64,000 bases of DNA from Silvanigrellaceae bacterium (GTDB lineage Bacteria; Bdellovibrionota_B; Oligoflexia; Silvanigrellales; Silvanigrellaceae): positions 1-64,000 of the forward strand of contig JBMSQQ010000006.1 in assembly GCA_049423385.1 (NCBI GenBank), given 5' to 3'. The translations under genes and the position numbers were made by a program. The notes below the pieces were generated by a model, which worked only from the letters and a program-made list of their open reading frames with translations, was not told the DNA's origin and did no database searches. How positions within the stretch are numbered: the stretch's first letter is position 1; every line of letters starts with the position of its first letter. Positions 1-23,175 of this stretch are shown here, one piece after another.

Positions 1-788
1 GGCATTTGTTCCATATTGACTGGCTTGTGTTGGGCTGTCGTGTCTGATCCCTGCGCATAGTCGAGCGAAGATCTGCACTTCACCTCACCACCTTGTGAAT
101 GAAGAACGTTGATCCTCGTGGCTGCGCCGGTGACCAAAACAGCGAGCGATGCATCGCCGCTGCCTTGAATCAGCTTCGAGCTGGTCACCGTTCCCATGGG
201 ACAATCGCTGACGGCAGCCGAGGATGCATTGTAAAAATCCTCTGCAGCAAGGCCACCATCAGATCCGTAGCGAATCGCCTTGATACCCGTGGAAATTTGC
301 GCATGCAAAAACCCGGTCTGCAGCCCCGTGACGAGCGACGTGGCGCGCGCACTCTTGAATGCCGCCTTGATGCTGCTCTCAGAACCCCATGCCTTGTTCT
401 TGATGAGTCCCGTTTTTACGTCGAATGTTCCCAGAGTCTCCTTGTCGGTACCCGGGTCTATGAAAAACATCAGGGTCGAAGCATCCAGGAAATGCAGCGC
501 AGTGACTGGACCATAATCAAGGCCACTTTCGCGCAAATCGATCGTCAAGGACAAGCGACCCGTGGAGTCATAGCGATAGGCAACGGGCCCGCCTCCATCC
601 TTGGGATTCGAACTCATCCAGAAAGACACGGCTCCAGTTTCTGGCGCTTCCGTGGCCGTTGCAGTGGGAGTGGGAATCGGTGCGTCGGAGGTCTTGCTTG
701 AAGAGGACTCTTTGCCACACGACAACGCCGTTGCAAGCAAAACGCCGACCGCCATTGAGGGGAGATATTTTGTATTGCAATAGTTCAT
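1..788 (-). CDS. Putative lipoprotein, hypothetical (3' end runs off the window)
   Basis: Read by hand, not in the ORF track: ATG at 788 gives MNYCNTKYLPSMAVGVLLATALS-CGKESSSSK (lipobox-like ALS-C), a P/T/A linker, then an open frame to position 1. Confidence 0.7.
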   Translation of the reverse strand, partial: MNYCNTKYLPSMAVGVLLATALSCGKESSSSKTSDAPIPTPTATATEAPETGAVSFWMSSNPKDGGGPVAYRYDSTGRLSLTIDLRESGLDYGPVTALHFLDASTLMFFIDPGTDKETLGTFDVKTGLIKNKAWGSESSIKAAFKSARATSLVTGLQTGFLHAQISTGIKAIRYGSDGGLAAEDFYNASSAAVSDCPMGTVTSSKLIQGSGDASLAVLVTGAATRINVLHSQGGEVKCRSSLDYAQGSDTTAQHKPVNMEQM

Positions 789-810
789 CGCTCGACACCC
801 ACCCTGCAGA

Positions 811-1911
811 TTAAAAAACAGGTTCCTTGAGATCCGCACCGCGACCAAGATCTGAATCCACCTTTTCGCGACCAAAGATTTTCCACGCCGACAAAATACA
901 GACCGATGAGAAGATGACCGTCGCGAGGAAAAACAAAGGATGAAAAAACAATGCCAATCCAAGACTGATGACCGCCAATGATCCGCAAACAACGATATTA
1001 GTCATGACCTTGTCCGCACTCGACAACGGCAACTCAGCCTCAAGTACTGCCAAGGAATGTCCCTGCACCAGCAGGCGTCGTTCCCGGGCGGTGGTCATGA
1101 ATTTGAATGGACTTTTGGGAGCGAAGGAATATCGCACCACCCAATAGGGCAAATGCACCAGGTGAATACCGACAATTTCAATTTCAGTACGGTGTTCGTA
1201 GAGCGTTCCCACTTTCGTTTTTGCAATACGTCGATGGTATTCCTGTATTTGATCCTTCGCCCTTGCTATCGCGGAGCTCTCTTTAACCTGGACGCCGGAG
1301 ATGGTGAGGCCGTTTGCATGATCAAATTTGAACGTCTGCCGTGCATCATAAACTGTGGCAGAGGCAGCACCTTTCACAACTCCGAGCGTCTCATCAAGCG
1401 GAAATCCGTCCCAGTCAATAATCACGTCTTCCTTGGGATGATGCAGACGTTCGAGACCCCAATGCTCCTTTGGAGACTTTCTCGCAAGAATTGACCAGCG
1501 ATACCTTCGGCTGAACCGATTTTCTTCCTTCAAAAATCGAGCGCCATATTCGTTTCCCTGACCTCGATAGTGGTTTGCCTTTTGGCTGTGGCCACTCCAA
1601 AAGGTGTGCGCCTCAACCGAAACGACCCAATAGGGAAGACTGATTCCATAGGAACCCAGAATATTGAATTCGCTCTTTACCCGATCGGGACGATGGTATC
1701 GCTCTGTGATCCAATCATAAAAAATCGACTCAACCTGCTCACGATCAAGACGGTTGGGCACAATGAAATGATCACCAATGATATCCTTGGCGCCCTCTTC
1801 CAGGTCTAGAATGAATCCGGTCGAGCAATAGGGGCAAAGGTGAATGTAGTCGTCGATATTGTATTCGAACGACGCATTGCACGCGGCACACGAGACCTGA
1901 AACATGAACAC
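811..1911 (-). CDS. Zinc-ribbon domain membrane protein, hypothetical
   Basis: N-terminal CAAC...CPYC pairs and two C-terminal hydrophobic helices; 366 aa. Confidence 0.7.
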   Translation of the reverse strand: MFMFQVSCAACNASFEYNIDDYIHLCPYCSTGFILDLEEGAKDIIGDHFIVPNRLDREQVESIFYDWITERYHRPDRVKSEFNILGSYGISLPYWVVSVEAHTFWSGHSQKANHYRGQGNEYGARFLKEENRFSRRYRWSILARKSPKEHWGLERLHHPKEDVIIDWDGFPLDETLGVVKGAASATVYDARQTFKFDHANGLTISGVQVKESSAIARAKDQIQEYHRRIAKTKVGTLYEHRTEIEIVGIHLVHLPYWVVRYSFAPKSPFKFMTTARERRLLVQGHSLAVLEAELPLSSADKVMTNIVVCGSLAVISLGLALFFHPLFFLATVIFSSVCILSAWKIFGREKVDSDLGRGADLKEPVF

Positions 1912-1968
1912 ACCCCAATTGAATGCAATTCAGTCTCAGATTAACGCCATCTTCCGGCCGAAACGATG

Positions 1969-2619
1969 TCAACGAGATTGCGGATGAAAAAAGTTCCTCA
2001 AGTTGCTCAAGAGGACCAAGGTCTCGTTTTTGAGCTCAGCAATTCCGGCCGAATTTTCAACAACAAAATTCGATTTCTGCCGGCGCTGGTCGTCGCCGAC
2101 CTGTGCGGAAAAAATTGCCGAGAGAGTCTCGACTGAGAGTTTACGGGACTTCAACAACCGGGCCTTGCGGACCTCATCGGAAGCAATCACAGAGACAACG
2201 GCATCGAAATCCTCTTCGCGGCCCGCTTCAAAAATGAGAGCTGCCTCATAGAAAACCCAAATGCCACCCGCCCGCTCCTCCAATTGTGAGCAAATTGAAT
2301 TGAACAATTTGGCAATTTCGGGATGGACAATTGCTTCAAGGGAAGACCTCAAAGCCGCATCGCCAAAGACCCTGTCGCGAACCCATGATCGTTGGTAAAC
2401 CTTGGCTCCACCTGCATCTTGCACATAGGCGCCTTCGCCCAAGAGCGATATGATCCTTGTCGTGACATGTTCCTGCAAGACGACCCGGGACACGAGCTGA
2501 TCAGCGTCGAATACGGGATATCCGAACGCTGCCAATTCGGATACAAGCGTGGATTTTCCGGAGCCAATGCCACCGGTCACCGCAATCTTCTTCAAATGAC
2601 CCTGCCGCCGCAATGACAT
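1969..2619 (-). CDS. coaE: Dephospho-CoA kinase
   Basis: IAVTGGIGSGKST P-loop, DAD motif, LEAIVHPEI and YEAALIFE. Confidence 0.93.
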   Translation of the reverse strand: MSLRRQGHLKKIAVTGGIGSGKSTLVSELAAFGYPVFDADQLVSRVVLQEHVTTRIISLLGEGAYVQDAGGAKVYQRSWVRDRVFGDAALRSSLEAIVHPEIAKLFNSICSQLEERAGGIWVFYEAALIFEAGREEDFDAVVSVIASDEVRKARLLKSRKLSVETLSAIFSAQVGDDQRRQKSNFVVENSAGIAELKNETLVLLSNLRNFFHPQSR

Positions 2620-2625
2620 GCGCCG

Positions 2626-3378
2626 TTATTTTCCGTTACGTTGCTTGTTTTTGAATTGATTTTGGCGATTTCGCCCTTGAAATTGGTTGCCACCGCGGTT
2701 GTTCTGATGGAAGCGGCGATTGTTGTTGCCCTGATGATTTCCGCGTTGGTTTCCCTGCATCCCATGGTGGCTCAATTGCGGCTGATGAACATTGCCGTTG
2801 GCATCTGGAGCTACATAACCGGTGCGGGTCATAAGGTGGCTCGGTGCGGGACGTTGGGCATCTTCAAAGGCACGACGAGTCACGCCTTCAGCAATAAGTT
2901 CAATCAGGATATCTTCGGGGAAAACACCTTCCATGCGTGCAACCTGGCGAACATGATTCATGAGGGAATAACTGAGTGTCAGCAAAATCTGATTTTGGTT
3001 TTGACCATATTGCTCACCCGACTCGCTGTAGTTTTCGTCTTCGTAGTAGGCAGGGTCGCCAATAAATTCACCGCCACCCACGGACTCAGGATAAGCTTCA
3101 TTCATGTTTGCAGCTGAACTCTCGTTCCAAGTCTGTGGCGAATTTTGTTGCTGAGTCATTCCTGTGGATTCCTCCTGAAATTCATCTGCGGAAAAATTTT
3201 GTTCTGCTGAAGATTGTTTACTGTCTTGGGTTTGCCGATTTTCAGCTTCGTTGTTTTGACCGCTGTCGACTTTCAATTCATTTTCATCCTTTGTCTTGCG
3301 GCTGGATGCTTTTCGCGGACGCGAAGGAGATGACGCCTTGGCGTCGCTGTTCAAAAAAGGACGTGAAATATTTAACAC
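2626..3378 (-). CDS. Hypothetical protein with a ribbon-helix-helix-like core and Q/N/G/R-rich disordered flanks
   Basis: GTG start with upstream GGAG; core QILLTLSYSLMNHVRQVARMEGVFPEDILIELIAEG; low-complexity termini. Confidence 0.65.
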   Translation of the reverse strand: MLNISRPFLNSDAKASSPSRPRKASSRKTKDENELKVDSGQNNEAENRQTQDSKQSSAEQNFSADEFQEESTGMTQQQNSPQTWNESSAANMNEAYPESVGGGEFIGDPAYYEDENYSESGEQYGQNQNQILLTLSYSLMNHVRQVARMEGVFPEDILIELIAEGVTRRAFEDAQRPAPSHLMTRTGYVAPDANGNVHQPQLSHHGMQGNQRGNHQGNNNRRFHQNNRGGNQFQGRNRQNQFKNKQRNGK

Positions 3379-3597
3379 AGATAAAAAACTCCGAGAGGAA
3401 CAAAAGAAACTGGCTCCTGCGCGATCGCGGCTTCAAGACCGCTTTTGCATGGAGACGACTGTAAGGCCGATGATCTCAGGACCAAGGGAACAAGATGGCG
3501 CGGTGCGCATCTTCAGGTGGGAAACGGCCTTGAAACACAAGCCCAGCTCGCCCAACCCTTCGACACTGACACAGGCTCGGCCCGAAGACAAGAAAGA

Positions 3598-4572
3598 TCA
3601 CTCTTCCAATTTATCAAGACTGGCATATTCCGCCAGAAGGCTGTCGGAATCTATCCAATTCGGTTGAACCTTGACAAACAATTCAAGATGGACTTTGCGT
3701 CCCAAATGTTTCTCAAGTGACTCACGAGCAGCAGTGCCTATGGCCTTGACGCGTGAACCCCTTGAACCAATGACCATGGCCTTGTGGTTGTCTTTGTGAA
3801 CAATAATGCTCGACTGAATGATCGTCATGCCTGCCTTGTTTTCAAAGCGCTCAACCTTGACAGCGGCACTGTAGGGCAACTCTTGTCCCAATTGACGGAA
3901 CAACTGCTCACGAATCAATTCTCCACAAACAAATTGCTGCGGACGATCGGTCAGGTCATCCTCTGAATACAACCAGGGCCCCTCGGGCATCCGCTCAGCC
4001 AGAAACTCACGAAAGATGCGAACGTCTTCAGGTCTCTTTGCAGAAACTGCAAGCGGAACCCGGGACACAAGATGCGCCTGCGACCCGGAGGCCGATCCTC
4101 CGGTCGCCTCTGCGGCTCGTCCGATGCAAGTGTTCATGCGCTCGCTGATCTGGTCAACATTCTCGTTGATGATTTCTGATTTCAACTTGTCAGTCTTGGT
4201 TGCCACAACAACAACGCTCTTCGCCGATTCGCGCAGCAGCTGGGTAAAAAACAAGTCATCTTCATCGCTCCAGCCGCGACTCGCGTCGACCAGAAAACAC
4301 GCCAGATCGGCATCCTGCAGGACGGACCAGGCCGTTGAATTCATCCTCTGATTCAACTTTGGAAGTCCGTTGCTCTGGTGAATACCCGGAGTATCGAGGA
4401 ACAAAATCTGGCTCTCGCCATTGGGGCAAATTCCAAGAATTCGATTTCGGGTCGTTTGCGGCTTTGCGCTCACAACCGCAAGTTTTGTACCAAGACAAGC
4501 ATTCATCAAAGTGCTCTTGCCCGCATTCGGCTGGCCCAACAAAGCAACATATCCACATTTCTTAACACTCAT
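3598..4572 (-). CDS. era: GTPase Era
   Basis: GQPNAGKSTL, KPQTTR, DTPG, TKTD and a C-terminal KH domain (QELPYS, VIGSRG). Confidence 0.96.
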   Translation of the reverse strand: MSVKKCGYVALLGQPNAGKSTLMNACLGTKLAVVSAKPQTTRNRILGICPNGESQILFLDTPGIHQSNGLPKLNQRMNSTAWSVLQDADLACFLVDASRGWSDEDDLFFTQLLRESAKSVVVVATKTDKLKSEIINENVDQISERMNTCIGRAAEATGGSASGSQAHLVSRVPLAVSAKRPEDVRIFREFLAERMPEGPWLYSEDDLTDRPQQFVCGELIREQLFRQLGQELPYSAAVKVERFENKAGMTIIQSSIIVHKDNHKAMVIGSRGSRVKAIGTAARESLEKHLGRKVHLELFVKVQPNWIDSDSLLAEYASLDKLEE

Positions 4573-5427
4573 TCAATCATCCTCTTGAACATCGCTGTCT
4601 TGGGCATATTTCTTGACCATTTCGGCAGTCAGTGCTCCTGACTCCATCATTTTTTGCATTCGTGCCGCAACCATTTTGCTTGCCTCACGCTTGTTGGCGG
4701 CCCCTGCGCGCGCAAGCTCAGTCTTGCCAATAAAGCCGGCGACCACAAATTGGTTTTCTTCGGGGGTCGAGATCGTCCGCACCAGTCGATAGACAGGTGG
4801 ACGTCCGCAAACGCTTTGCGTCCATTGCTGAAAACGGGTCTTCACATCGAAGTCTCCCAGAGTCTTTTCGGCGACAACCAGATCTGCGGCAAAAAGCGAG
4901 CGCAACCAATCCCATGCCTTCTGTTCACCCGCATCGAGCAAAAGCGCTGCCGTCACGGCTTCGAAAGCATCGGCCAAAATATTTTGGCGTTTCTCCGAGC
5001 GAAATCCACCCTTGGCAATCTCTCCGCGGCCAAACATGATCATTTCGTGAAGGCCAATTGACTTCGCCTTTTCAGAAAGATTTTCGGTTCCAACCAGGGC
5101 AGCGCGCAACCGCGAAAGCTCGCCTTCAGCCATTTTTGGAAAAGACGCCATGGCCTCGCAGGCAACAAAGAAATTGACGAAAGAATCACCCAGAAATTCA
5201 AGGCGCTCGTTGCTGAAAATGGTCGATTTGTCATTCGGCCAATACACGAGGGCACTGCGGTGAATCAGCGACACAACGGCAAATCTCTTGTTTGCGTAAA
5301 CGTGGCCCTGGGTCCTTTCCAGAGCAGCGATGCGAGCATCAAGATCCGGAAAAAACTTGCGCAACCTGGGCTCATCCAGCGGCTTGAGCCAGTCTGCCAA
5401 TGCTTCGGTGTTCTGTCGTGCGGTCAT
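4573..5427 (-). CDS. rnc: Ribonuclease III
   Basis: NERLEFLGDS signature, ADAFEA, C-terminal dsRBD; directly upstream of era. Confidence 0.95.
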   Translation of the reverse strand: MTARQNTEALADWLKPLDEPRLRKFFPDLDARIAALERTQGHVYANKRFAVVSLIHRSALVYWPNDKSTIFSNERLEFLGDSFVNFFVACEAMASFPKMAEGELSRLRAALVGTENLSEKAKSIGLHEMIMFGRGEIAKGGFRSEKRQNILADAFEAVTAALLLDAGEQKAWDWLRSLFAADLVVAEKTLGDFDVKTRFQQWTQSVCGRPPVYRLVRTISTPEENQFVVAGFIGKTELARAGAANKREASKMVAARMQKMMESGALTAEMVKKYAQDSDVQEDD

Positions 5428-6536
5428 GTCACAGCAACCTGATGGATGAATCCACCACCGAGCACCTCATCGCCACGGTACAAAACCGCAATTTGTCCTG
5501 GAGTGACCGATCTTTGGGGACTGTGAAACTGCATGAGGGTCTCGCCACTGTCTGATCGACGAGTGACGTGCCCCGCAACTGGTTGCGAACGATATCGAAT
5601 TCGAACATCAAATGGCTCAGTGACATCGACGTTGCGGACAAGGTGGAACTTGTCGAACACAAATCCAGAGCGCATCAGGAATTCCTCTTCCCCAACAAAC
5701 ACCTTTCCAGTTTCGTGTTCGATTCGTGTCACATAAAGGGGCTTGTCCGAGACGATTCCAATGCCTTTCCGCTGACCCACAGTGAATTTGTGAATTCCAT
5801 CATGCTGTCCAAGGACAGACCCATTCTCATGGTGAATCTCACCTTTGACAATCCTTGCCACATCGGCATTTTTTTCAATAAACGCGGCGTAATCATTGTT
5901 TGGAATGAAGCAGATTTCCATACTCTCTTTTTTGCGTGCATTCACCAATCCAAAACGCTCTGCATGAGCACGAACTTCAGGTTTGGTCATTGCACCAAGC
6001 GGAAACAAAATCCTGCTGAGCCGATCTTGGGTCATTGAGTACAAAAAATAACTCTGATCCTTTTGGCTATCCACGCCCTTCAGCAATCGATACTCATTGC
6101 TGTCCGTGCAATAGTCAATCCTGGCGTAATGGCCCGTCGCAACCGCATCACAACCCAGCCGCAAAGCCCGCTCAAGCAGGTGATCAAATTTCAAAAATGT
6201 ATTGCAGGCAACGCATGGATTCGGCGTTCGTCCGCGCAGATATTCTGTTGTGAAATAATCAACGACGCTTTTTTGAAAGTCTTCCTGATAGTCCATGACA
6301 TAAAATGGAATACCAATTTTTTCTGCAACCTCACGTGCGTCGGCTACGTCATCATGACTGCAACAGCTGTCAAATTTCGCAGAGGGATCGCAACTCGATT
6401 CATTCTTCGAGTAATCCCAAAGCTGCATGGTGACACCAATGACTTCATGTCCCTGTTCTTTAAGCAGGGCAGCAGCCACGCTGCTGTCAACGCCACCAGA
6501 CATTGCCACTAGAATTCTTTTTCGCTGATTGATCAT
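5424..6536 (-). CDS. mnmA: tRNA-specific 2-thiouridylase MnmA
   Basis: AMSGGVDSS, TPNPCVACN, ATGHYA, KDQSYFL, ESMEICF, TPGQ. Confidence 0.97.
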   Translation of the reverse strand: MINQRKRILVAMSGGVDSSVAAALLKEQGHEVIGVTMQLWDYSKNESSCDPSAKFDSCCSHDDVADAREVAEKIGIPFYVMDYQEDFQKSVVDYFTTEYLRGRTPNPCVACNTFLKFDHLLERALRLGCDAVATGHYARIDYCTDSNEYRLLKGVDSQKDQSYFLYSMTQDRLSRILFPLGAMTKPEVRAHAERFGLVNARKKESMEICFIPNNDYAAFIEKNADVARIVKGEIHHENGSVLGQHDGIHKFTVGQRKGIGIVSDKPLYVTRIEHETGKVFVGEEEFLMRSGFVFDKFHLVRNVDVTEPFDVRIRYRSQPVAGHVTRRSDSGETLMQFHSPQRSVTPGQIAVLYRGDEVLGGGFIHQVAVT

Positions 6537-13413: not shown

Positions 13414-14535
13414 TTATTTCCGTAGCTTCGTGAATATCTGCCAGCGCTTCTTCAATTCCGGCGGTGCCGTCTCTTCATCGACAACCTGGCTCAAGGGAAT
13501 GCTTTGCGGTGGTGCCGACAGGTCCTTGTCGCTGAATGCTTGTTCAACCGGCTCGCTCGCAGTTCCTTTGGCCGAGCTTTGATCTGCAACTCCAATCATG
13601 GACTGAGGAATCATGGAGTACTCGGGACCACCGGCAGACGCTCGAGGATCATTTCGACTTGAGACAGTTCCGCTGGCGGATGGGAGACTCAAGCCCATGG
13701 ATCCGGGCCCATGTGACGTCGGATCCATCGTCAATGATGTGGGGGCATTGGATACGCCAGATGCTGGATAACCTCCTGCAACACTGCCAACACCCGACGC
13801 ATTTCGCCTGCCCTTGATGAGCAAGGCTAAAACCGCAAATACCGCGACTGCGGCTACAGCCCAAGGCAGATAAGCCTGAACCAACGCTGCAAGCGCTGTC
13901 GATTGAGGTTGGGGCGCACTCTTGAATTCAAGTGAAGTCATGTAGGGATAGTAGAGTTCAAGGTTGCGATCGAAATTGAGTCGGTGGTCCGACAGCGTGA
14001 CGCGATACCTGACTGTTTCATCTCCCATGACTAGAATGGCCTGACCTGCATCGACACCATCTGTCTTGAAAGAGACGTAGTACAAAAGCCCGGAATGTCC
14101 GCCTGGCAGGTCTCTCAAAAGATTCTTCTGAAAAATTTGAAACTCGGAACCTGCGCCATTGAATCGAATGAAACTTTCTTCGATCTCTTTTGCAGTTGCA
14201 TCCAACGATTCCTGGTTGAATGTCACGGGTTTTTTTACAACCGCGACTGTGATGCTGGGATCCGCCACGACACCCTTGGGCAACTTTATCCGCTCCGCCT
14301 TGCTCGAAGGCTTCAGCGTCACGGCGAATCTTTGCGTGCCAACCTCGGCAATCCATTTGGGTGGAATCTTGATCTTGAATTCCTGACCGGACTCTCGCGA
14401 TTCATAGTAATCCATGAACACCGGCGTTTTCGCCTGGGATGGTTTGGAATGTGCTGCAAAGGGCCAAACAGTCATCAAGACTGAAAAAATTCCGATACAG
14501 ACAAGTTTCCAGAGCCTCCCAAGATTAGACAGCAT
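13414..14535 (-). CDS. Exported, membrane-anchored hypothetical protein (possible PsbP/DcrB-like domain, one TM helix, disordered tail)
   Basis: Signal peptide ending AAHS, FKIKIPPKW motif, TM LPWAVAAVAVFAVLALLI, S/P/G-rich tail; overlaps the upstream TPR gene by 11 bp. Confidence 0.6.
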   Translation of the reverse strand: MLSNLGRLWKLVCIGIFSVLMTVWPFAAHSKPSQAKTPVFMDYYESRESGQEFKIKIPPKWIAEVGTQRFAVTLKPSSKAERIKLPKGVVADPSITVAVVKKPVTFNQESLDATAKEIEESFIRFNGAGSEFQIFQKNLLRDLPGGHSGLLYYVSFKTDGVDAGQAILVMGDETVRYRVTLSDHRLNFDRNLELYYPYMTSLEFKSAPQPQSTALAALVQAYLPWAVAAVAVFAVLALLIKGRRNASGVGSVAGGYPASGVSNAPTSLTMDPTSHGPGSMGLSLPSASGTVSSRNDPRASAGGPEYSMIPQSMIGVADQSSAKGTASEPVEQAFSDKDLSAPPQSIPLSQVVDEETAPPELKKRWQIFTKLRK

Positions 14536-16081
14536 ACCGAACGGCCTCTGTCTGCTGAGTCAGGCGGAGCGAACGCTCCACCGCGCGCACGAGCGTCTCA
14601 CTCGTTTCCGGGTCAGTATCGAGAAAATAAACCGGAGAATTCGCTGAGAAGTTTTCACAGCCAAAGAAATCAAGCAAGGCTGTTGTTCCCCGCCCAAGCT
14701 GCAAATCAACCGGTGTTTCGAGATCCTGGAAGCGACCGACACACACAGCAAATCCGTAGCGTGAATCGGGCGTGACTTCGCTGAGTGTGCACATGACGCC
14801 AACAATCTGTTGTTGACCGGTTCTCCAGTCATTGCTTCCAAAACGTCGAGCAACAAGAACAAGATCTCCCTTGTTCACAGAGTCCGGGCTGCGCAGCAGC
14901 AAATTGGCATGTCTTCTGAAGTTTTCGACATCATGGTCTTCCACTGAAAGAATCCATGCTCTTGGTGATCCCGCGGTGGACTCCGACAATTGATTGGGAC
15001 GACCGTTTCCACGACGCGAAGTCTTGGTGTTTTCGCCAACTCCCAATTCAGTCAATGCAAGACGCAGGGGGGCTTCTGAAAGACCCAATTTTTCGGCCGA
15101 ACTGATCGCAGTCGAGATTGCACGCACTGCTTCATCACGATGCTCTTCCATTCGATAGCGCTCGTAAAGGCGCTTGCTCAGTGCACCGAGTGTTGCACTG
15201 AAATCATAATCATTGCTTTCAAAGAGATAATTCGAAGACACCAGAATGTCTCTTGCAGCGAGGAGATCTCCGGTTTTCTCGAGACAATTCGCCAAGGCAA
15301 TCAGGGCGTCCGTGTTGTCTGGATTGTCGGCAACAAGCTCCTGCAACACACGCACAGCTTCACTCCAACGCCCTTGCGCGACCGCAAGTCGTGCTGCGCC
15401 CCAGAAAGGCTCTGGACAGCGAGGAAAACGCGAGTGAATCAATTCAAAGGCTTTCGATGCCTCTTCAAGATAATCATTTTCGAGCGAATAAACGAGATAA
15501 TTGCGCGCAAGAAAGTAATTTTCCTTGTTGTGTACATTCAATGCCTGAAGATATTGGAGTCCGCGTTCACGTCGCATCCGGTTCGGTGATTCACAATTAT
15601 AAACAGCGACGCATTCAACATGAGAAATGCTGCGGCGAAGATTTGATGCGTTTAAAGATTTGATGATTTTTCCGCTGAAGCGGCGCTCGCCCGAATAGGC
15701 CAAAGCAAGCGCTGCAAGTGGCAAAAAGGACTTGGATGAGTGACGAAGGCCAAGAAGATGCCTTGAGAGTGTTTTCAATGCCGCGAAGTTGTAGTCAACG
15801 CGCAGGGATTCAATCCAGAAGCGGTAAAGTCTGAAGGTTGCCCTGAAACCGCATCCCGCTGCGATGACCCGCGATGCGATCTCCTCAACCTGGTCCCACG
15901 AGCCCTTCCAGAACAGAAGCTCACATCCTCGCAGTGCTGCGTTGATGTCGCCAGTCTTCAATTCGCCTCGTGCAAGTCCTTGCTCCACGCGATCAAGCAG
16001 CCTGGTGATCTCGGGATTGAATGTTCCCGAAGCGCTGAGATTTTTGTGTGGATAGAACCTGTTTCCGCGTCTTTCACCCAT
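14525..16081 (-). CDS. Tetratricopeptide-repeat protein with a C-terminal EVE/PUA-like domain
   Basis: TPR patterns (PEPFWGAARLAVAQGRWSEAVRVLQELVADNPDNTDALIALANCLEKTGD) and C-terminal WILSV...VNKGDLVLV...IVGV..LSEVTPD...LETPVDL; GGAG before ATG 16081. Confidence 0.7.
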   Translation of the reverse strand: MGERRGNRFYPHKNLSASGTFNPEITRLLDRVEQGLARGELKTGDINAALRGCELLFWKGSWDQVEEIASRVIAAGCGFRATFRLYRFWIESLRVDYNFAALKTLSRHLLGLRHSSKSFLPLAALALAYSGERRFSGKIIKSLNASNLRRSISHVECVAVYNCESPNRMRRERGLQYLQALNVHNKENYFLARNYLVYSLENDYLEEASKAFELIHSRFPRCPEPFWGAARLAVAQGRWSEAVRVLQELVADNPDNTDALIALANCLEKTGDLLAARDILVSSNYLFESNDYDFSATLGALSKRLYERYRMEEHRDEAVRAISTAISSAEKLGLSEAPLRLALTELGVGENTKTSRRGNGRPNQLSESTAGSPRAWILSVEDHDVENFRRHANLLLRSPDSVNKGDLVLVARRFGSNDWRTGQQQIVGVMCTLSEVTPDSRYGFAVCVGRFQDLETPVDLQLGRGTTALLDFFGCENFSANSPVYFLDTDPETSETLVRAVERSLRLTQQTEAVRYAV

Positions 16082-16212
16082 ACGTTCGACTCCTTCCGGC
16101 TGATCCGACTGTAGCAATCGGAAGAGGTATCGGTGAGGAACAAAACTTCACTGAGGGGTGGCACGTCAAAGGCAGTTTCCGGGGTGAAAATTCGAACAGG
16201 CAAATTGAGCCG

Positions 16213-18675
16213 TCAGAACTCAACGACCTGATCTGCAAAGCGAAGAAACTCTTCCCTGTTCTCGAGGACGACAAAGCTTGCACCACGGGAAACCATCATC
16301 CGCAACAATCGCCCCAAGGTGGCGATGTCGGGCGTGTGAAGACCGGTGCCTGGATGCAGAAGCATGAACCAAGCACCCTCCAGCTGTGACCTTCGCAACT
16401 CAAGTGTGAGCGTGAGTCTTTGCAATTCACCTCCACTGAGTGAATCCATTCCCTGGCCCAGAGTGATATAACCAAGGCCAAACTGGAGAGCGGCAGCGAG
16501 CCGGCTTTCAACAAGCCTGACGTGAGCAAAGAACTGGCGAGCTTCATCCAGCGACAGACTCATAATCTCCGCAAGATTGAGTCCCTTGAAACGTGGGACG
16601 AGGCTTCTTTGGGAAAGTTTCGTTCCCAGACACTCCTCACAATTGATCTCAACAGGTGGTCCGAAGCGCTGCGGAATTTCGAGATATCCACGGCCTTCGC
16701 AGGATTCGCAACGGCCGGATTTTGAATTCCAGGAAAAGTGAGAAGGAGTCAGGCCCATCACCTGGGACTGAGGCAGCTGGGCAAAAATTTCCCTTATGGG
16801 AACAAGTATATCAAGCGCTGCCGCAACCGTGCGCCGTGAAGTCCGGACAAGACTTCCAGGCCGAACATCGTGCAGTGACGTCACCAAAAGTGGTCCTTCG
16901 GGAACAACCTTGCAGAACTCCAATTGATGACTTGAAAGTTTGTTTGAATCCAGCAACTTTTCAAGCGAAGGTCGTACACAAAGCTCAAGCACCGAGCTCT
17001 TTCCTCGCCCAGCCTCTCCACGCAGGAGCGTGAGTCCTGCCTGCTGAATTTTGATTTTTTGCACCTTGGCTGTTCTCACTTTGACGCTCTCGAGGATCAT
17101 CGCAGCAGGTTGCTTTTCTGTTGGCAATTCGGGCTCTCCCTTGCGGCGGCGACGGCCGGTGTCGAGTCCAACGCCCGTTCCCGCCTCGAGGGCCTTCGTC
17201 GTCGTTGCAGAATCGAAAAGCTGAGCTTCCTTCTTCAACAGCATCTTGACGATTTGATCGGTGCCAACAAAATGTTCCGTAATGCGTCCACCCAGTCGGC
17301 CAGCACCGGGTCCCATCAGAAAAATCTCGTCGCAATGCTGAAGGAACTGCGGATGATGTTCAACCACCACAACCGATGAACCACCGTCGACGAGCGAACG
17401 CAAAACCTTCACCAATCGCGCCACCTCGGCACCTGTGAGACCCTGACAAGGCTCGTCCATGATATAGAGTGCACCTCGCAGCTGATTTGAAATCATCGAT
17501 GCAAGCCTGAGACGCTGAAGATCGCCTGGAGACAAACTTCCACCATCGCGATTGAGCGTGAGGTGTTCAAGTCCAAGTGCGCACATTGTTTCAACCAACC
17601 GAAGCGCTTCAGACAAAACCTGGTTCTTGGCTCTTTCGCTTCCTGCATCCTGTCGAAAGGAAGTCGAGAGGTGCATGAGCAATTCCTGCAGAGGATTTTG
17701 ATGCAGTTTTTCGAAGTTCAGACCCTGAACCCGGACGATCGGACGACTGGGATCGAGACGGCTTCCTGCACATTTCTTGCAGGGATAGAGGTCTGCCGGA
17801 AGTTCCTCCTCAAGTGCGCCCGTTCCTGCGCAAGTTTCACACTGTGCCAAAGAGGAATGACTAAAGTAACGCGGGTCGAGTCGGGGCGCACTTTCTCCAC
17901 ATTGCGGACAAGCCGACTTCGTGTTGAATTTTTGAATCTCGGACTTGCACTCGATCTTGACCACTCCCTTGCCATATTCAAGTGCTTGCCCGATGGCCCG
18001 TTCAAGGCGTGCCATTCGTTCAGGCAGCACCTGCACAGCATCGATCAGAACTTCGATGGTGTTGAGTTTTTTTGCGTCAATCAAGATTTTCTGATCATCG
18101 TCCTGCAGTGAATATGTTTCTGCATTGACGCGAATCTTCGAAAATCCAAGTTGTCTGAATTTTTCTATCTCTGTGCTGAAGCCACCTTTTCGGCGCTCCA
18201 CGATGGGCGCGACGACCGTGATTTTCTGGCCATCGAAGCTTTGGCTGATCTTGCTCATCAATTCACGAAAGGGTGTTGCCCGGAGCGGAACATCGCAATG
18301 GCGACAGTGAACATCTCCAAAGGCAGCAAAATAAACGCGCAAAAGATCGCTGACTCCGGAAATCGTTCCCACTGTAGAGAGTTTACCTGCCACCCCTTGC
18401 CGTTGAGACAAACCCAGTGCGGGAGGAAGACCACGAATAGCCTTGAATTTGGGACGCACTGTTCTTGACCAAAAAGAGTGGCCCATGAGTTGAACCGGGG
18501 CATGACTGGCGTCCGCGAAACGCCGAAAAGCCTCGACATAAAGTGTATCGAAAACCAAACTGGACTTTCCGGAGCCACTGACACCCGTGAATGCCACAAG
18601 CTTGTGTTTGCTGATGTCGACATCGACGGACTGCAAATTGTGCTCATGTGCACCTTTTACCTCGATCGTCTGCAT
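16213..18675 (-). CDS. uvrA: Atypical UvrA-family ABC ATPase (820 aa)
   Basis: GAHEHNL, TGVSGSGKSSL, STVGT, Cys-pair Zn modules, YIMDEP, second P-loop GEAGRGKSS, LGQ..LSGGELQRL; several motifs are degenerate (see findings). Confidence 0.85.
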   Translation of the reverse strand: MQTIEVKGAHEHNLQSVDVDISKHKLVAFTGVSGSGKSSLVFDTLYVEAFRRFADASHAPVQLMGHSFWSRTVRPKFKAIRGLPPALGLSQRQGVAGKLSTVGTISGVSDLLRVYFAAFGDVHCRHCDVPLRATPFRELMSKISQSFDGQKITVVAPIVERRKGGFSTEIEKFRQLGFSKIRVNAETYSLQDDDQKILIDAKKLNTIEVLIDAVQVLPERMARLERAIGQALEYGKGVVKIECKSEIQKFNTKSACPQCGESAPRLDPRYFSHSSLAQCETCAGTGALEEELPADLYPCKKCAGSRLDPSRPIVRVQGLNFEKLHQNPLQELLMHLSTSFRQDAGSERAKNQVLSEALRLVETMCALGLEHLTLNRDGGSLSPGDLQRLRLASMISNQLRGALYIMDEPCQGLTGAEVARLVKVLRSLVDGGSSVVVVEHHPQFLQHCDEIFLMGPGAGRLGGRITEHFVGTDQIVKMLLKKEAQLFDSATTTKALEAGTGVGLDTGRRRRKGEPELPTEKQPAAMILESVKVRTAKVQKIKIQQAGLTLLRGEAGRGKSSVLELCVRPSLEKLLDSNKLSSHQLEFCKVVPEGPLLVTSLHDVRPGSLVRTSRRTVAAALDILVPIREIFAQLPQSQVMGLTPSHFSWNSKSGRCESCEGRGYLEIPQRFGPPVEINCEECLGTKLSQRSLVPRFKGLNLAEIMSLSLDEARQFFAHVRLVESRLAAALQFGLGYITLGQGMDSLSGGELQRLTLTLELRRSQLEGAWFMLLHPGTGLHTPDIATLGRLLRMMVSRGASFVVLENREEFLRFADQVVEF

Positions 18676-18809
18676 TTTGCCTTTTCCTCCGATGTCCCGT
18701 CATTGACGCCGTGCGCACTATATCAGAGTCGGGTACGATTGAACTGTCTCCCATTGGAAGGGAGTCAGCCGCTGGTGGTCTTCCCAATGGTGGGCCCAGC
18801 CATGAACGG

Positions 18810-19982
18810 ATGAAATATATGATAAACAGTGAAAGCAACATGGCGAGTGCAGACGTGTCCAAACAAATCGACTTTCAAGCAGTTTTGAAAGCCCACGAAC
18901 AGGGCCTCAACCAGCCTGAGGGCACGATGACGCTGATCGCTGGCGATGCCAGCGACCGGAAGTTCTACCGCCTGCAATCCGAGGAATTCAGTGCCATTTG
19001 CATGAAGTTCCCCAAATGGGAAGGCGGATATGGCGGAGATCCACTCAGCTGGTTGGGCATGCAATCGGCACTCGTGGGTATCGGCATACCAGTTCCGCGC
19101 GTTCTTTTTGTGGATGAGCAAAATGCGTGCATCTGGACAGAGGATTTCGGCGACCATTTTCTCAACTTCAGCCTTGGCAATCGAATCCTCGATGAGAAGG
19201 ACAACGAGTGCGCAGCAACCCTTGGGCTTTTTAGAGACGCACTCGATTTGCTGGTCCAGGTGCAATACCCGCGCCGTCATTTGCTCAAACATCCAGCGCA
19301 AGACAGGGCATTCGATTTTGAAAAACTGATGTTCGAAATGAATTTTTTCATGACCCACTTTGTGAAGGGTTGGCTTGGCCTGCCGCTCACGGAAAGCGAT
19401 CCTCGTGACCGTGAATTGGTGAAGGAAATGGAATCTGTCTGCACACTTCTTCACGGTGCCGAGCGGGTACTCTGTCATCGCGATTATCACGTGAGGAATG
19501 TGATGGTCGTGCACGGCGGTATTCGCTGGATTGATTTTCAGGATGCCCGCATGGGACCTCACACATACGATGTCGTCAGTCTGATTCGCGACAGCTACAC
19601 CAAAATCACCCCGGCAACCCGGGTTTCGCTGTTGAAGTTCTATGGAGCCAAACTCAATGAGGCAAGGTCCCGAGCAGGACGAAATCCGCTCGGCAACGAG
19701 GAGCTGTTCCATGAAGCTTCATTGATGGGACTCCAACGCAACATCAAAGCTCTTGGCAGCTTTGGTTACCTTGCAACGCAAAAGCAAAAGACCGGCTATC
19801 TGAAATACGTCAGCTCGACGATCGAAACGATTTTAGCAGATGACTTTTCCAAGGGATCTGGAATGCGAATTGCCGACGCGTTCCCTGCAACCGGCGAATT
19901 CCTGCACGACATCATCCACGGACGATGGAAAGCACTCTTTGAATCAAAGCTTCGTGCTTATGGAGTCAATGAGACGTTCTGA
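18810..19982 (+). CDS. amgK: APH-family anomeric MurNAc/GlcNAc kinase (AmgK-like)
   Basis: IAGDASDRKFYR, EDFGD, CHRDYHVRNVM, IDFQDARMGP..YDVVSL..D, QRNIKALGSF. Start could be 18810 or 18840. Confidence 0.8.
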   Translation: MKYMINSESNMASADVSKQIDFQAVLKAHEQGLNQPEGTMTLIAGDASDRKFYRLQSEEFSAICMKFPKWEGGYGGDPLSWLGMQSALVGIGIPVPRVLFVDEQNACIWTEDFGDHFLNFSLGNRILDEKDNECAATLGLFRDALDLLVQVQYPRRHLLKHPAQDRAFDFEKLMFEMNFFMTHFVKGWLGLPLTESDPRDRELVKEMESVCTLLHGAERVLCHRDYHVRNVMVVHGGIRWIDFQDARMGPHTYDVVSLIRDSYTKITPATRVSLLKFYGAKLNEARSRAGRNPLGNEELFHEASLMGLQRNIKALGSFGYLATQKQKTGYLKYVSSTIETILADDFSKGSGMRIADAFPATGEFLHDIIHGRWKALFESKLRAYGVNETF

Positions 19983-21666: not shown

Positions 21667-21831
21667 GCCTCGCGAGGGGCTGCGGTTTCAAAAAAAATCA
21701 ATACTTGCTGTCACTGGTTTAATCATGCCCACCTTGAGCTGTCCAGCGAGTCTCCCGTAGGCTTGATCAAGCAAGCCTGTTCTCGCGGGGTCAATCACCG
21801 TGTCCAGCGGGTTCGCAGGGAGAAATCTGGA

Positions 21832-23175
21832 ATGATGAATACACAAGATTTTAATGCCATCGTTCTCTGTGCAGGACTCGGAACACGGCTTCGCCCACTC
21901 ACGAATGCCATGGCCAAGCCATCGGTTCCGGTGGGTCCTGTGCCTGCCGCACTGCGAAACATCGAACAGTTGTTATCCTTCAACATTCCGGTGGTGCACT
22001 GCAATACCCATTATTTGGCTGAAGATCTCGAAATGGAGCTTTTGGCAGCCTGCCAATCACGCGGAATTCCTGCTGCGCGCTTGCGTTTTTGGAATGAGCC
22101 CGAATTGCTCGAAACCGGTGGGGGTATTGCGAGGATAGCAAAGACCTTGGCGAATGAATCAAATCCACAGACCTGCAAGGACACTTTGGTTGTCTCTGGA
22201 GACATTGTGGCGGACATTCCGTTGGCAAAAATGATGAGTGCCTGGCGGGCGCGAAAAGAGTCGGAGACCGCACTCATGGTGACCTTGCCTTTGGACAGGC
22301 CCCGAAAGGACGTCACATGGGTAGATGAAGTCAATCGTTCTGTTGTGGGTTTTGGAGCCGATTGGGATTCCGAGATTGCAGGCGGGCGAGGCTATTCACC
22401 CAGGGTTTTCTCCAATCATCAAATCATATCGGGCACAATTCTCCAGAACAGCAGGTTGGAGAAAAAATCGAGCATCGATATTTTTTATCGACAGGCCATA
22501 CGAGATGGTGAATCCATTATTCACGTCCCGTTTGAGTCTGATGCCCATTGGTTTGATATTGGCACGCCAGAGACCTACCTGAAGTGCATAAGCAAGCTTG
22601 ATCATGATCTCCCGGAGCGACTTGAACAATTGGGATCAAGCATGATCAATCTTTGCACGCTTGATCACACTGGCACGGATGGGAGTGCGACTGTCCTCAA
22701 CAATCCCAATCATGTTCATTCCCGCTCAGCCAAGAAGAAGTTTGCCGAACATTGCTTAAGCAAGATCAGTCAGGGCTCCACAACCCAATGGTTATGGATA
22801 GGCACCATTCATTCTCTTCCATCTGTTTTTCATTCTGGATTGTTGAATCTGGCTCGTTGCTTCTCTGTGCGCCCCGAGGGCGAATCGCAACATGCGGAAG
22901 GCTCATCGAACTTGCCCTTGGCCATTCATGCTCTTCAGGGCGGCTTGCAGAGGCTTCTGGCCTCTTCATTGGCTCAAATATCCCGGGACACCTCATTGGA
23001 CACAGCAGGCTTCATCGACTTGCCCCGTCCTCAACCTCTCTCCACGCATCCCCTCTTCCAGGCCCCTTTGCTTGTTCCACTCGACCTGTTGCTCAACACC
23101 GGGGGACTCTCTCAACTCGCTTCAAACGAAGCCATCTCGCCATTTTGGATTCTTGTCACTCCGCCGCGGCAGTGA
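21832..23175 (+). CDS. murU: Sugar-1-phosphate nucleotidyltransferase (MurU-like) with a C-terminal extension
   Basis: VLCAGLGTRLRPLT..MAKP, NTHYLA, EPELLETGGG, WFDIGTPE; near the amgK-like gene. Confidence 0.72.
   Translation: MMNTQDFNAIVLCAGLGTRLRPLTNAMAKPSVPVGPVPAALRNIEQLLSFNIPVVHCNTHYLAEDLEMELLAACQSRGIPAARLRFWNEPELLETGGGIARIAKTLANESNPQTCKDTLVVSGDIVADIPLAKMMSAWRARKESETALMVTLPLDRPRKDVTWVDEVNRSVVGFGADWDSEIAGGRGYSPRVFSNHQIISGTILQNSRLEKKSSIDIFYRQAIRDGESIIHVPFESDAHWFDIGTPETYLKCISKLDHDLPERLEQLGSSMINLCTLDHTGTDGSATVLNNPNHVHSRSAKKKFAEHCLSKISQGSTTQWLWIGTIHSLPSVFHSGLLNLARCFSVRPEGESQHAEGSSNLPLAIHALQGGLQRLLASSLAQISRDTSLDTAGFIDLPRPQPLSTHPLFQAPLLVPLDLLLNTGGLSQLASNEAISPFWILVTPPRQ

Follow-up and report, generated by a model that had tools for sequence, protein, structure and literature searches.

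What is left for a UvrA protein to do once one of its two ATPase sites has been dismantled and its insertion domain removed? The question is raised by a gene in a stretch of 64,000 nucleotides from a Silvanigrellaceae bacterium (GenBank assembly GCA_049423385.1, contig JBMSQQ010000006.1, positions 1 to 64,000; order Silvanigrellales, class Oligoflexia), referred to below as the window. The gene lies at 16213-18675 on the minus strand and encodes a UvrA homolog, here called the short paralog to set it apart from a second, longer UvrA of the same genome, the long paralog. Judged from its sequence, the short paralog is a conserved, streamlined copy of UvrA with a predicted UvrB-docking domain and one ATP site that should still work. 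The division of work among the two ATPase sites and the insertion domain of UvrA in lesion search, UvrB loading and release is debated, and has so far been addressed with engineered homodimer mutants only. The two paralogs would offer a natural separation-of-function pair, conserved across an order, in which one has a good UvrB-docking domain and the other the reverse emphasis.

The distal site of UvrA is formed from the ATP-binding domain at the C terminus and the N-terminal signature domain, according to the available part of PMC12796330. The excerpts of PMC7835731 implicate the proximal site in how UvrA interacts with UvrB and with DNA and in UvrA release, and the distal site, which is needed to find lesions, in telling damaged from native DNA; in live E. 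coli, UvrB loading was intact when distal hydrolysis was blocked, and for it the proximal site had to be functional, while the distal site needed only to bind ATP. The excerpted text of PMC6486640 also describes the distal site as the tight-binding, burst-hydrolysing one. Deletion of residues 290-400 from E. coli UvrA abolished damage discrimination, and the deleted protein supported Mfd-coupled repair (PMC3025350, from its accessible portion).

Architecture of the short paralog and its two ATPase sites

Inspection of the open reading frames of the window shows a single unbroken frame of 820 codons, whose product has the UvrA structures 3pih_A (E 2e-133) and 2r6f_A (E 8e-123) as its closest solved relatives in a comparison with PDB sequences. 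The NCBIfam equivalog model TIGR00630 matches it with 551.9 bits, below the curated cut-off of 729.8, in two stretches that skip model positions ~287-403. As the first-pass annotation had proposed, a structure model was built: the AlphaFold2 model, computed from 60 orthologs, has a mean predicted local distance difference test score (pLDDT) of 86.3 and a predicted template modelling score (pTM) of 0.81, with low confidence only at residues 62-66 and in the inter-module linker 499-519. Its top fold matches in the PDB are UvrA chains (3uwx_A, E 9e-65, TMq 0.72), and the modelled protein carries two ATP-binding cassette (ABC) ATPase modules on one chain in the overall UvrA fold.

Conservation was assessed in 92 full-length sequences, comprising the window protein and 91 orthologs (43-89% identity), aligned with E. 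coli UvrA. Compared with the E. coli protein, Walker A-I, Q-loop-I, Walker B-I, H-loop-I and signature-II are intact, and the catalytic residues of the proximal site (K37, Q91, D407, E408, H440 and the signature-II motif LSGGE) are all kept in 92/92 orthologs. The only remnant of the distal site is the P-loop GxxGxGK, while the residues of the Q-loop, Walker B, H-loop and signature-I are replaced, mostly by new residues that are themselves invariant. The changes relative to E. coli UvrA are G489 to P and E491 to D in signature-I, D857 to L and E858 to H in Walker B-II, and H890 to N in H-loop-II. The last substitution is found in every ortholog, within an invariant ENREEF, and the E858 equivalent is His in 91/92. 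The positions that vary are the D857 equivalent (V28, T22, M16, L10, F8), the Ser of signature-I (S64, A19, V6, giving the pattern L-[S/A/V]-P-G-D) and residue 560 after the Walker A-II Lys, which is unconserved (S44, G15, A12, T10, L4 and others). The segment containing Walker B-II and H-loop-II gave no alignment to solved UvrA chains, either by single sequence or by family profile. Thus, only one of the two composite sites has the residues for catalysis, and Mg-ATP binding at the distal site is doubtful, since the Walker B Asp is gone and so is the Ser following the P-loop Lys.

Outside the ATPase sites, the UvrB-binding domain is readily recognized (Pfam PF17760, 77.6 bits, profile positions 5-107 of 109), and the equivalent of E. 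coli R216 is kept in 91/92 orthologs. All twelve ligands of the three Zn modules are present. The insertion (DNA-binding) domain of ~110 residues has been replaced, with 14 residues in the alignment columns of E. coli 283-402, and a Pfam search gave no match to the insertion-domain family PF17755. The protein ends right after the strand that follows the H-loop, as do all orthologs; beyond E. coli position 903 there are 2-5 residues in 16/16 members of the order, and 19-42 in 16 relatives outside the order that also lack the insertion domain.

The first-pass annotation had described lesions in signature-I, Walker B-II and H-loop-II, which hit the distal site exclusively and spare the proximal one, an insertion domain cut down to a short loop, and a retained UvrB-binding domain and C-terminal Zn finger. 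This description holds for the window protein, and its distal-only pattern of damage for the 92 orthologs; its assignment of motifs to the two sites agrees with the definition in the available part of PMC12796330, and its coordinates for signature-I, Walker B-II, H-loop-II and the Zn2 loop agree with those in Table 1. The replacement of the Q-loop-II Gln by Pro, the unconserved residue after the Walker A-II Lys and the loss of ~37 C-terminal residues come in addition.

Selection on the gene was examined through the ratio of nonsynonymous to synonymous substitution rates (dN/dS). Comparisons of the window with same-genus relatives were saturated at synonymous sites, and closer pairs of relatives were used instead, the least saturated being the genomes G026 and G033 (dS 0.51). 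For this pair dN/dS is 0.053 over the whole gene, with values of 0.026 for the UvrB-binding domain and 0.027 for the Walker B-II/H-loop-II segment; only the linker (0.57) and the surroundings of Walker A-II (0.13) have higher ones. Because the replaced residues are invariant and dN/dS is low, the short paralog is under selection and not decaying, with substitutions that its relatives share under purifying selection, as had been supposed. The region 16000-18900 is also covered by metagenome contigs of an independent study, with 4-6 substitutions and zero indels, among them a 35-kb contig with 4 substitutions; the differences listed inside the gene are synonymous in 5/5 cases. A metatranscriptome run of another study contains two 151-nt contigs identical to the gene, at 17780-17930 and 17942-18092, which were not counted as expression and are a weak hint at most, because strand and level are not shown and DNA carry-over is possible.

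Table 1. Features of the short paralog gene, with positions in the window and conservation among the 92 aligned sequences.
Feature	Position	Strand	Remarks
Whole gene, short UvrA paralog without insertion domain, 820 aa	16213..18675	-	stop codon included
Walker A-I GVSGSGKSS, residues 31-39, proximal, intact	18559..18585	-	G31, S33, G34, G36, K37, S39 in 92/92
UvrB-binding domain, residues 128-255	17911..18294	-	between Zn1 half-sites C124xxC127 and C256xxC259
Zn module 2, C279xxC282 ... C299xxC302	17770..17841	-	four Cys invariant; 16-residue loop replaces insertion domain
Signature-I LSPGD, residues 381-385, distal, degenerate	17521..17535	-	G to P in 92/92; E to D in 91/92
Walker B-I LYIMDE, residues 403-408, proximal, intact	17452..17469	-	D407 and E408 in 92/92
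H-loop-I His440, proximal, intact	17356..17358	-	92/92
Walker A-II GEAGRGKSS, residues 553-561	16993..17019	-	G553, G556, G558, K559 in 92/92
Q-loop-II position, Pro606 for conserved Gln (E. coli Q690)	16858..16860	-	P in 92/92
C-terminal Zn finger Zn3, C656xxC659 ... C679xxC682	16630..16710	-	four Cys invariant
Signature-II LSGGE, residues 746-750, proximal, intact	16426..16440	-	five positions each 92/92
Walker B-II region WFMLLHPGTGLH, residues 769-780	16336..16371	-	Asp to hydrophobic or Thr; Glu to His
H-loop-II replaced by ENREEF, residues 805-810	16246..16263	-	N806, R807, E808 in 92/92
H-loop-II and early protein end (..ADQVVEF)	16216..16263	-	~37 aa short of E. coli UvrA

The long paralog and the class-wide family

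Protein and TIGR00630 searches of the source genome recovered the second UvrA gene at C19:3-1673 (-) and C80:14729-15964 (-), split right at Walker B-I (..ALYVL / EPSVGL..), where two contigs end, with about one residue missing. The long paralog has both ATPase sites intact and an insertion domain, is 28-30% identical to the short paralog, and scores 273 and 319 bits with TIGR00630 for its two parts, under the UvrA cut-off. In a survey of 34 genomes of the order from 9 genera, the long paralog occurs in 34/34 and the short paralog in 33/34, the sole genome without it being 72% complete. A UvrA above the TIGR00630 cut-off is present in 1/34 genomes, and no canonical UvrA was found in the other 33, the source genome included. 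The first-pass annotation had asked whether the genome also has a canonical uvrA: none was found, and a full-length second paralog with intact motifs is present in its place. The one canonical UvrA in the order (G002:C487:300-3700; 1354 bits) lies on an 8.5-kb contig in a genome that also has the long and short paralogs, and is either a retained third paralog or contamination, that genome being listed at 4% contamination.

The accessory domains of the two paralogs are opposed. PF17760 matches 8/8 short paralogs over its full length with 77.6-86.9 bits, compared with 132 bits for E. coli UvrA, while among 13 long paralogs it is above the cut-off in two (26.3 and 26.7 bits, partial matches), below the cut-off in three and unreported in eight (for two of these the scan went no further than E 1e-4). 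PF17755, by contrast, is found in 0/8 short and 12/13 long paralogs, with 31-61 bits in the latter and 135 bits in E. coli UvrA. For the same genome pair as above, dN/dS of the UvrB-binding region is 0.163 in the long and 0.026 in the short paralog, a sixfold weaker constraint in the long one. Of the other repair proteins, UvrB is single-copy and canonical in 5/5 relatives examined (1014-1039 bits), and the source genome contains a UvrB N-terminal fragment at a contig end, uvrC and a canonical mfd (941 bits, cut-off 800), the last on a different contig from the short paralog.

A survey of 71 genomes labelled as the same phylum and class shows that UvrA paralogs of ~830-900 residues without insertion domain are common across the class. 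They are accompanied by a full-length paralog (750-815 bits) and, in 15 genomes, by a canonical UvrA (1143-1376 bits) as well. A database search with one family member retrieved at least 120 clusters of 820-924 residues with PF17760 only, from Oligoflexus, Pseudobacteriovorax and metagenome-assembled genomes, under the names UvrA, 'ABC-ATPase UvrA' or hypothetical. The insertion-domain-less UvrA family of this class is thus large and undescribed; a literature search found no natural insertion-domain-less UvrA, degenerate UvrA site, class III or IV UvrA, or uvrA paper on these taxa, with most subscription papers outside its scope and an earlier description therefore possible. That such a family sits under plain 'UvrA' or 'hypothetical protein' names matters for annotation and for inference of repair capacity.

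In a quick IQ-TREE phylogeny of 813 columns, rooted by choice on canonical UvrAs, the window protein and its order-mates fall in one clade with the insertion-domain-less paralogs of the class (Shimodaira-Hasegawa-like approximate likelihood ratio test, SH-aLRT, 99; 100 in a second tree), and the long paralogs cluster with the full-length 'mid' paralogs in a single clade (SH-aLRT 99). Which duplication came first would depend on where the root is placed, because there are only three major clades in the tree. For both UvrA paralogs, the order-level groups sit on long stem branches (0.94 and 0.87). Among 17 family members outside the order, the Walker B-II Asp is kept in 14, the Glu in 17 and the H-loop-II His in 14, while the Q-loop-II Gln is kept in 0/17 (Arg in 16, His in one) and the signature-I Gly in 10/17. 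Their proximal site is intact in 17/17, the C-terminus is full in 16 (the seventeenth being cut by a contig end), 3-33 residues replace the insertion domain, and PF17760 matches strongly. Members of the order, by comparison, are altered in the distal site and truncated in 16/16.

Thus, loss of the insertion domain defines a large, class-wide paralog family, and only the dead distal site and the shortened C-terminus are peculiar to the order. The Q-loop-II and signature-I states outside the order imply that alteration of the distal site began in the ancestor of the family; distal erosion and C-terminal truncation were completed on the stem of this order. The UvrB-binding domain of the partner faded on the same stem, PF17760 being recognizable in 11/11 full-length paralogs outside the order (26-65 bits). 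UvrB scores are alike inside and outside the order (965-1039 bits), and, with UvrB as the single control, the acceleration is therefore specific to the UvrA pair.

Insertion-domain loss has also occurred independently in the full-length clade, in three proteins of one family (L064, L066 and L071), whose genomes have two copies without the domain and none with it. Within the order, a 1.8-Mb genome contains a further loss in the long-paralog family (L044, G031:C8:23000-26200), an 816-residue frame from which Zn2 and the insertion domain are deleted. DNA binding by E. coli UvrA is abolished when four Arg are mutated together. Of the four, only R712 has a universal equivalent; neither of the class-specific UvrA paralog families has Arg in the columns of R722, R724 and R730, and in both the DNA-binding surface therefore departs from that of canonical UvrA.

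A search of a representative library was topped by tandem UvrAs, which outrank single ones because their scores are summed, and gave no clean outgroup. Among 123 tandem UvrAs, 44 consist of a full protomer followed by one without insertion domain; the arrangement is reversed in 4, and in 7 neither half has the domain. One member of the same class (L095, G082:C5:2000-8600; frame 525-5948, minus strand) is a tandem of 1808 residues combining a full and an insertion-domain-less protomer, in a genome that also encodes separate copies of both kinds. In this fusion and in five tandems like it, the first half branches with the long-paralog family (SH-aLRT 96). The fusions show that the pairing of a full with an insertion-domain-less protomer is a recurrent and workable arrangement, which does not in itself prove such pairing between separate proteins.

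A proposed division of work in UvrA and the competing readings

The short paralog always occurs beside a fuller UvrA, and the two therefore probably share the job of the sensor. Its anatomy fits a division of work, since it keeps the parts that the literature assigns to UvrB docking and release and lacks those assigned to lesion discrimination. The reading preferred here, whose prospects of being right or wrong are about equal, is that the short paralog would be the UvrB-docking, proximal-site-driven subunit of a two-paralog UvrA, to which the long paralog supplies lesion sensing, most simply in a heterodimer. The short paralog would have been reduced to what is needed to dock UvrB and, under the control of the proximal ATPase, to release it: it may contact DNA via signature II and Zn3, recruit UvrB through residues 128-255, and let it go upon hydrolysis at the proximal site, while damage discrimination would come from the long paralog, most simply within a long:short heterodimer. 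By analogy with asymmetric ABC proteins, the distal module would act as a non-catalytic structural or allosteric element, whose pocket may hold a nucleotide on the P-loop, or be locked by P383, D385, P606, H774, N806, R807 and E808. The first-pass annotation had called the protein selected and repurposed; selected stands, but repurposed may be wrong, since 33/34 genomes lack a canonical UvrA and the short paralog is more likely part of ordinary excision repair with divided work.

A stronger version of the division of work, which is tentative and better doubted than believed at present, is that UvrA in this order, perhaps in the class, is an obligate heterodimer, composed of a sensor protomer with insertion domain and two live sites and a UvrB-docking protomer whose distal site serves as a nucleotide-independent latch. 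If true, this would give an asymmetric A.A'.B complex, with one UvrB loaded in a defined orientation, as opposed to the symmetric A2B2 complex usually studied. A heterodimer of the two proteins would also make it testable which protomer's sites do what, whether one UvrB suffices, and what structural part the dead site plays.

Several observations weigh against such a division of work. UvrB docking and loading by the short paralog are predicted from retention of the domain, and PMC3025350 (in its available text) mutated two interface residues of E. coli UvrA, R216 and E222, of which only R216 is conserved, the E222 equivalent not being kept. The region of the long paralog resembling the UvrB-binding domain, although diverged, is still under purifying selection, and a one-column shift in the alignment may let it keep an Arg equivalent to R216. 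The long paralog may therefore bind UvrB in a co-adapted way, and in that case a heterodimer would not be needed. The short and long genes are never adjacent, lying 142-241 kb apart in the six genomes that have both inside one contig, and their co-occurrence in related genomes is not independent evidence. That the distal site binds ATP at all is doubtful with the Mg ligands gone, whereas the engineered mutants cited above kept such binding. The sample of tandem proteins is biased, since their retrieval query itself lacked the insertion domain, and their second halves branch near the insertion-domain-less family but not as its sister.

An unlikely competitor of the two-paralog sensor makes the short paralog a homodimeric UvrB loader dedicated to transcription-coupled repair. 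Mfd at a stalled RNA polymerase would bring it in via the UvrB-binding domain, which would make damage sensing by UvrA unnecessary, and the long paralog would handle global repair alone, its own UvrB-binding domain being co-adapted. According to the accessible portion of PMC3025350, template-strand repair that depends on Mfd persists in E. coli when UvrA lacks the insertion domain or is mutated in damage recognition. The UvrB-binding domain, which according to that paper likely binds Mfd too, is the most constrained accessory part of the short paralog. A canonical Mfd is present in the source genome. The same text describes the proximal ATPase as less important for coupled repair, yet it is invariant here; moreover, the UvrB-binding domain of the long paralog is nearly unrecognizable, and the short paralog has no linkage to mfd.

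Somewhat less probable still is a role outside excision repair, either as a ligand-displacing DNA-binding ABC protein in the manner of class II, or in regulation or competition, by sequestering UvrB or capping the long paralog. The UvrA paralog Ecm16 sets a precedent, acting independently of UvrB and UvrC (PMC9328131, in the part available), and the sub-threshold TIGR00630 score and the absence of three of the four E. coli DNA-binding Arg are in keeping with it; but the long-paralog family lacks the same three Arg, the UvrB-binding domain is kept, unlike in class II, the gene lies in housekeeping synteny and not in a biosynthetic cluster, and the genome otherwise has no UvrA with a recognizable UvrB-binding domain. 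The invariance of the P-loop and of the substituted residues argues that the distal pocket matters, and could be taken to mean that the distal site still catalyses through substitutes (e.g. His774 as base), making the protein an ordinary two-site UvrA of odd appearance. This is very improbable given the joint loss of six elements (the Ser after Lys, Q-loop Gln, Walker B Asp/Glu, H-loop His, and signature Gly/Ser), the variable and hydrophobic position of the Mg-coordinating Asp, and the failure of the segment to align with solved UvrA chains. Recent decay, a pseudogene, or an assembly or sequencing error, which might be suspected of a fragmented source genome (183 contigs, 90.6% complete), has a negligible claim: it is refuted by the open frame, the pattern shared across all orthologs, the low dN/dS, and the collinear, indel-free contigs of the independent study.

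Comparison with known systems places the short paralog outside classes I and II of UvrA; the first-pass annotation had already set it apart from class II. Class I UvrAs (E. coli, Geobacillus stearothermophilus, Thermotoga maritima) provide the best sequence and fold matches and have in common with the short paralog the two ABC modules, Zn1-3, the UvrB-binding domain, signature II with the Zn3 hairpin, and an intact proximal site. They differ in the insertion domain, distal catalytic residues and ~37 C-terminal residues that the short paralog lacks, in the TIGR00630 score (552 for the short paralog, cut-off 730), and in the presence here of a second paralog alongside; since two defining features are absent, the short paralog is not class I. 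Class II UvrAs (D. radiodurans UvrA2, DrrC, Ecm16), reportedly subdivided into IIa and IIb by Marszalkowska in 2013, similarly have lost one accessory domain and co-exist with another UvrA. However, as described in the available parts of PMC3167621 and PMC9328131, they are without the UvrB-binding domain (in IIa also without Zn1) and retain the insertion domain, whereas the short paralog keeps the UvrB-binding domain and Zn1 and lacks the insertion domain; the domain loss being the reverse, it is not class II. According to the same excerpts, Ecm16 needs its ATPase, whereas one site of the short paralog is dead.

The family members outside the order (e.g. in Oligoflexus and Pseudobacteriovorax) share its clade, its domain loss and the loss of the Q-loop-II Gln, but keep the Walker B-II Glu and the full C-terminus and, mostly, the Walker B-II Asp and the H-loop-II His. 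Asymmetric ABC proteins with a degenerate site include heterodimeric exporters and CFTR, which usually retain the Walker B Asp and a bound ATP. Their hallmarks, a kept Walker A with replacement of the Walker B Glu, the H-loop His and the opposite signature, also appear in the short paralog, a likeness drawn from sequence, and the short paralog additionally lacks the Walker B Asp, the Q-loop Gln and the Ser after Lys. The tandem UvrAs (~1600-2300 residues, NCBIfam NF001885 type) combine a full and an insertion-domain-less protomer in 48/123 cases, one of them in the same class, but are covalent fusions with four mostly intact sites, whereas here two distant genes are involved and one site is dead. 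The engineered E. coli mutants (the 290-400 deletion and the distal hydrolysis mutants; PMC3025350 and PMC7835731, in the parts available) had the corresponding parts removed but retain distal Mg-ATP binding, in contrast to the natural, order-wide short paralog, which lacks even the Mg ligands.

Genes around the locus

The short paralog gene lies in a conserved housekeeping synteny, and none of its neighbours is a repair gene. Upstream and divergent are genes for an APH-family phosphotransferase (18648-19982, plus strand) and a nucleotidyl-transferase (21763-23175, plus strand), both conserved across the order. This pair resembles the N-acetylmuramic acid/N-acetylglucosamine (MurNAc/GlcNAc) kinase and uridylyltransferase of cell-wall recycling.

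Downstream, after a gap of 96 nt, lies the gene for a tetratricopeptide repeat (TPR) protein of 530 residues (14525-16117, minus strand), which is found on the same strand downstream of the short paralog in 10/12 loci of the order, in one of these ~5 kb away. Its last ~150 residues gave no Pfam match even at E 5, and yielded only a faint lead to the EVE domain in Atlas, at rank 8 with a score of 0.94, the family occurring on 11% of members. The TPR protein was considered as an obligate partner of the short paralog and dropped, the EVE lead being faint and the tail absent from the ~375-405-residue orthologs of one genus. Overlapping the end of the TPR gene by 11 nt is a gene at 13414-14535 (minus strand) for a 373-residue protein without a Pfam match, which is conserved in several loci of the order.

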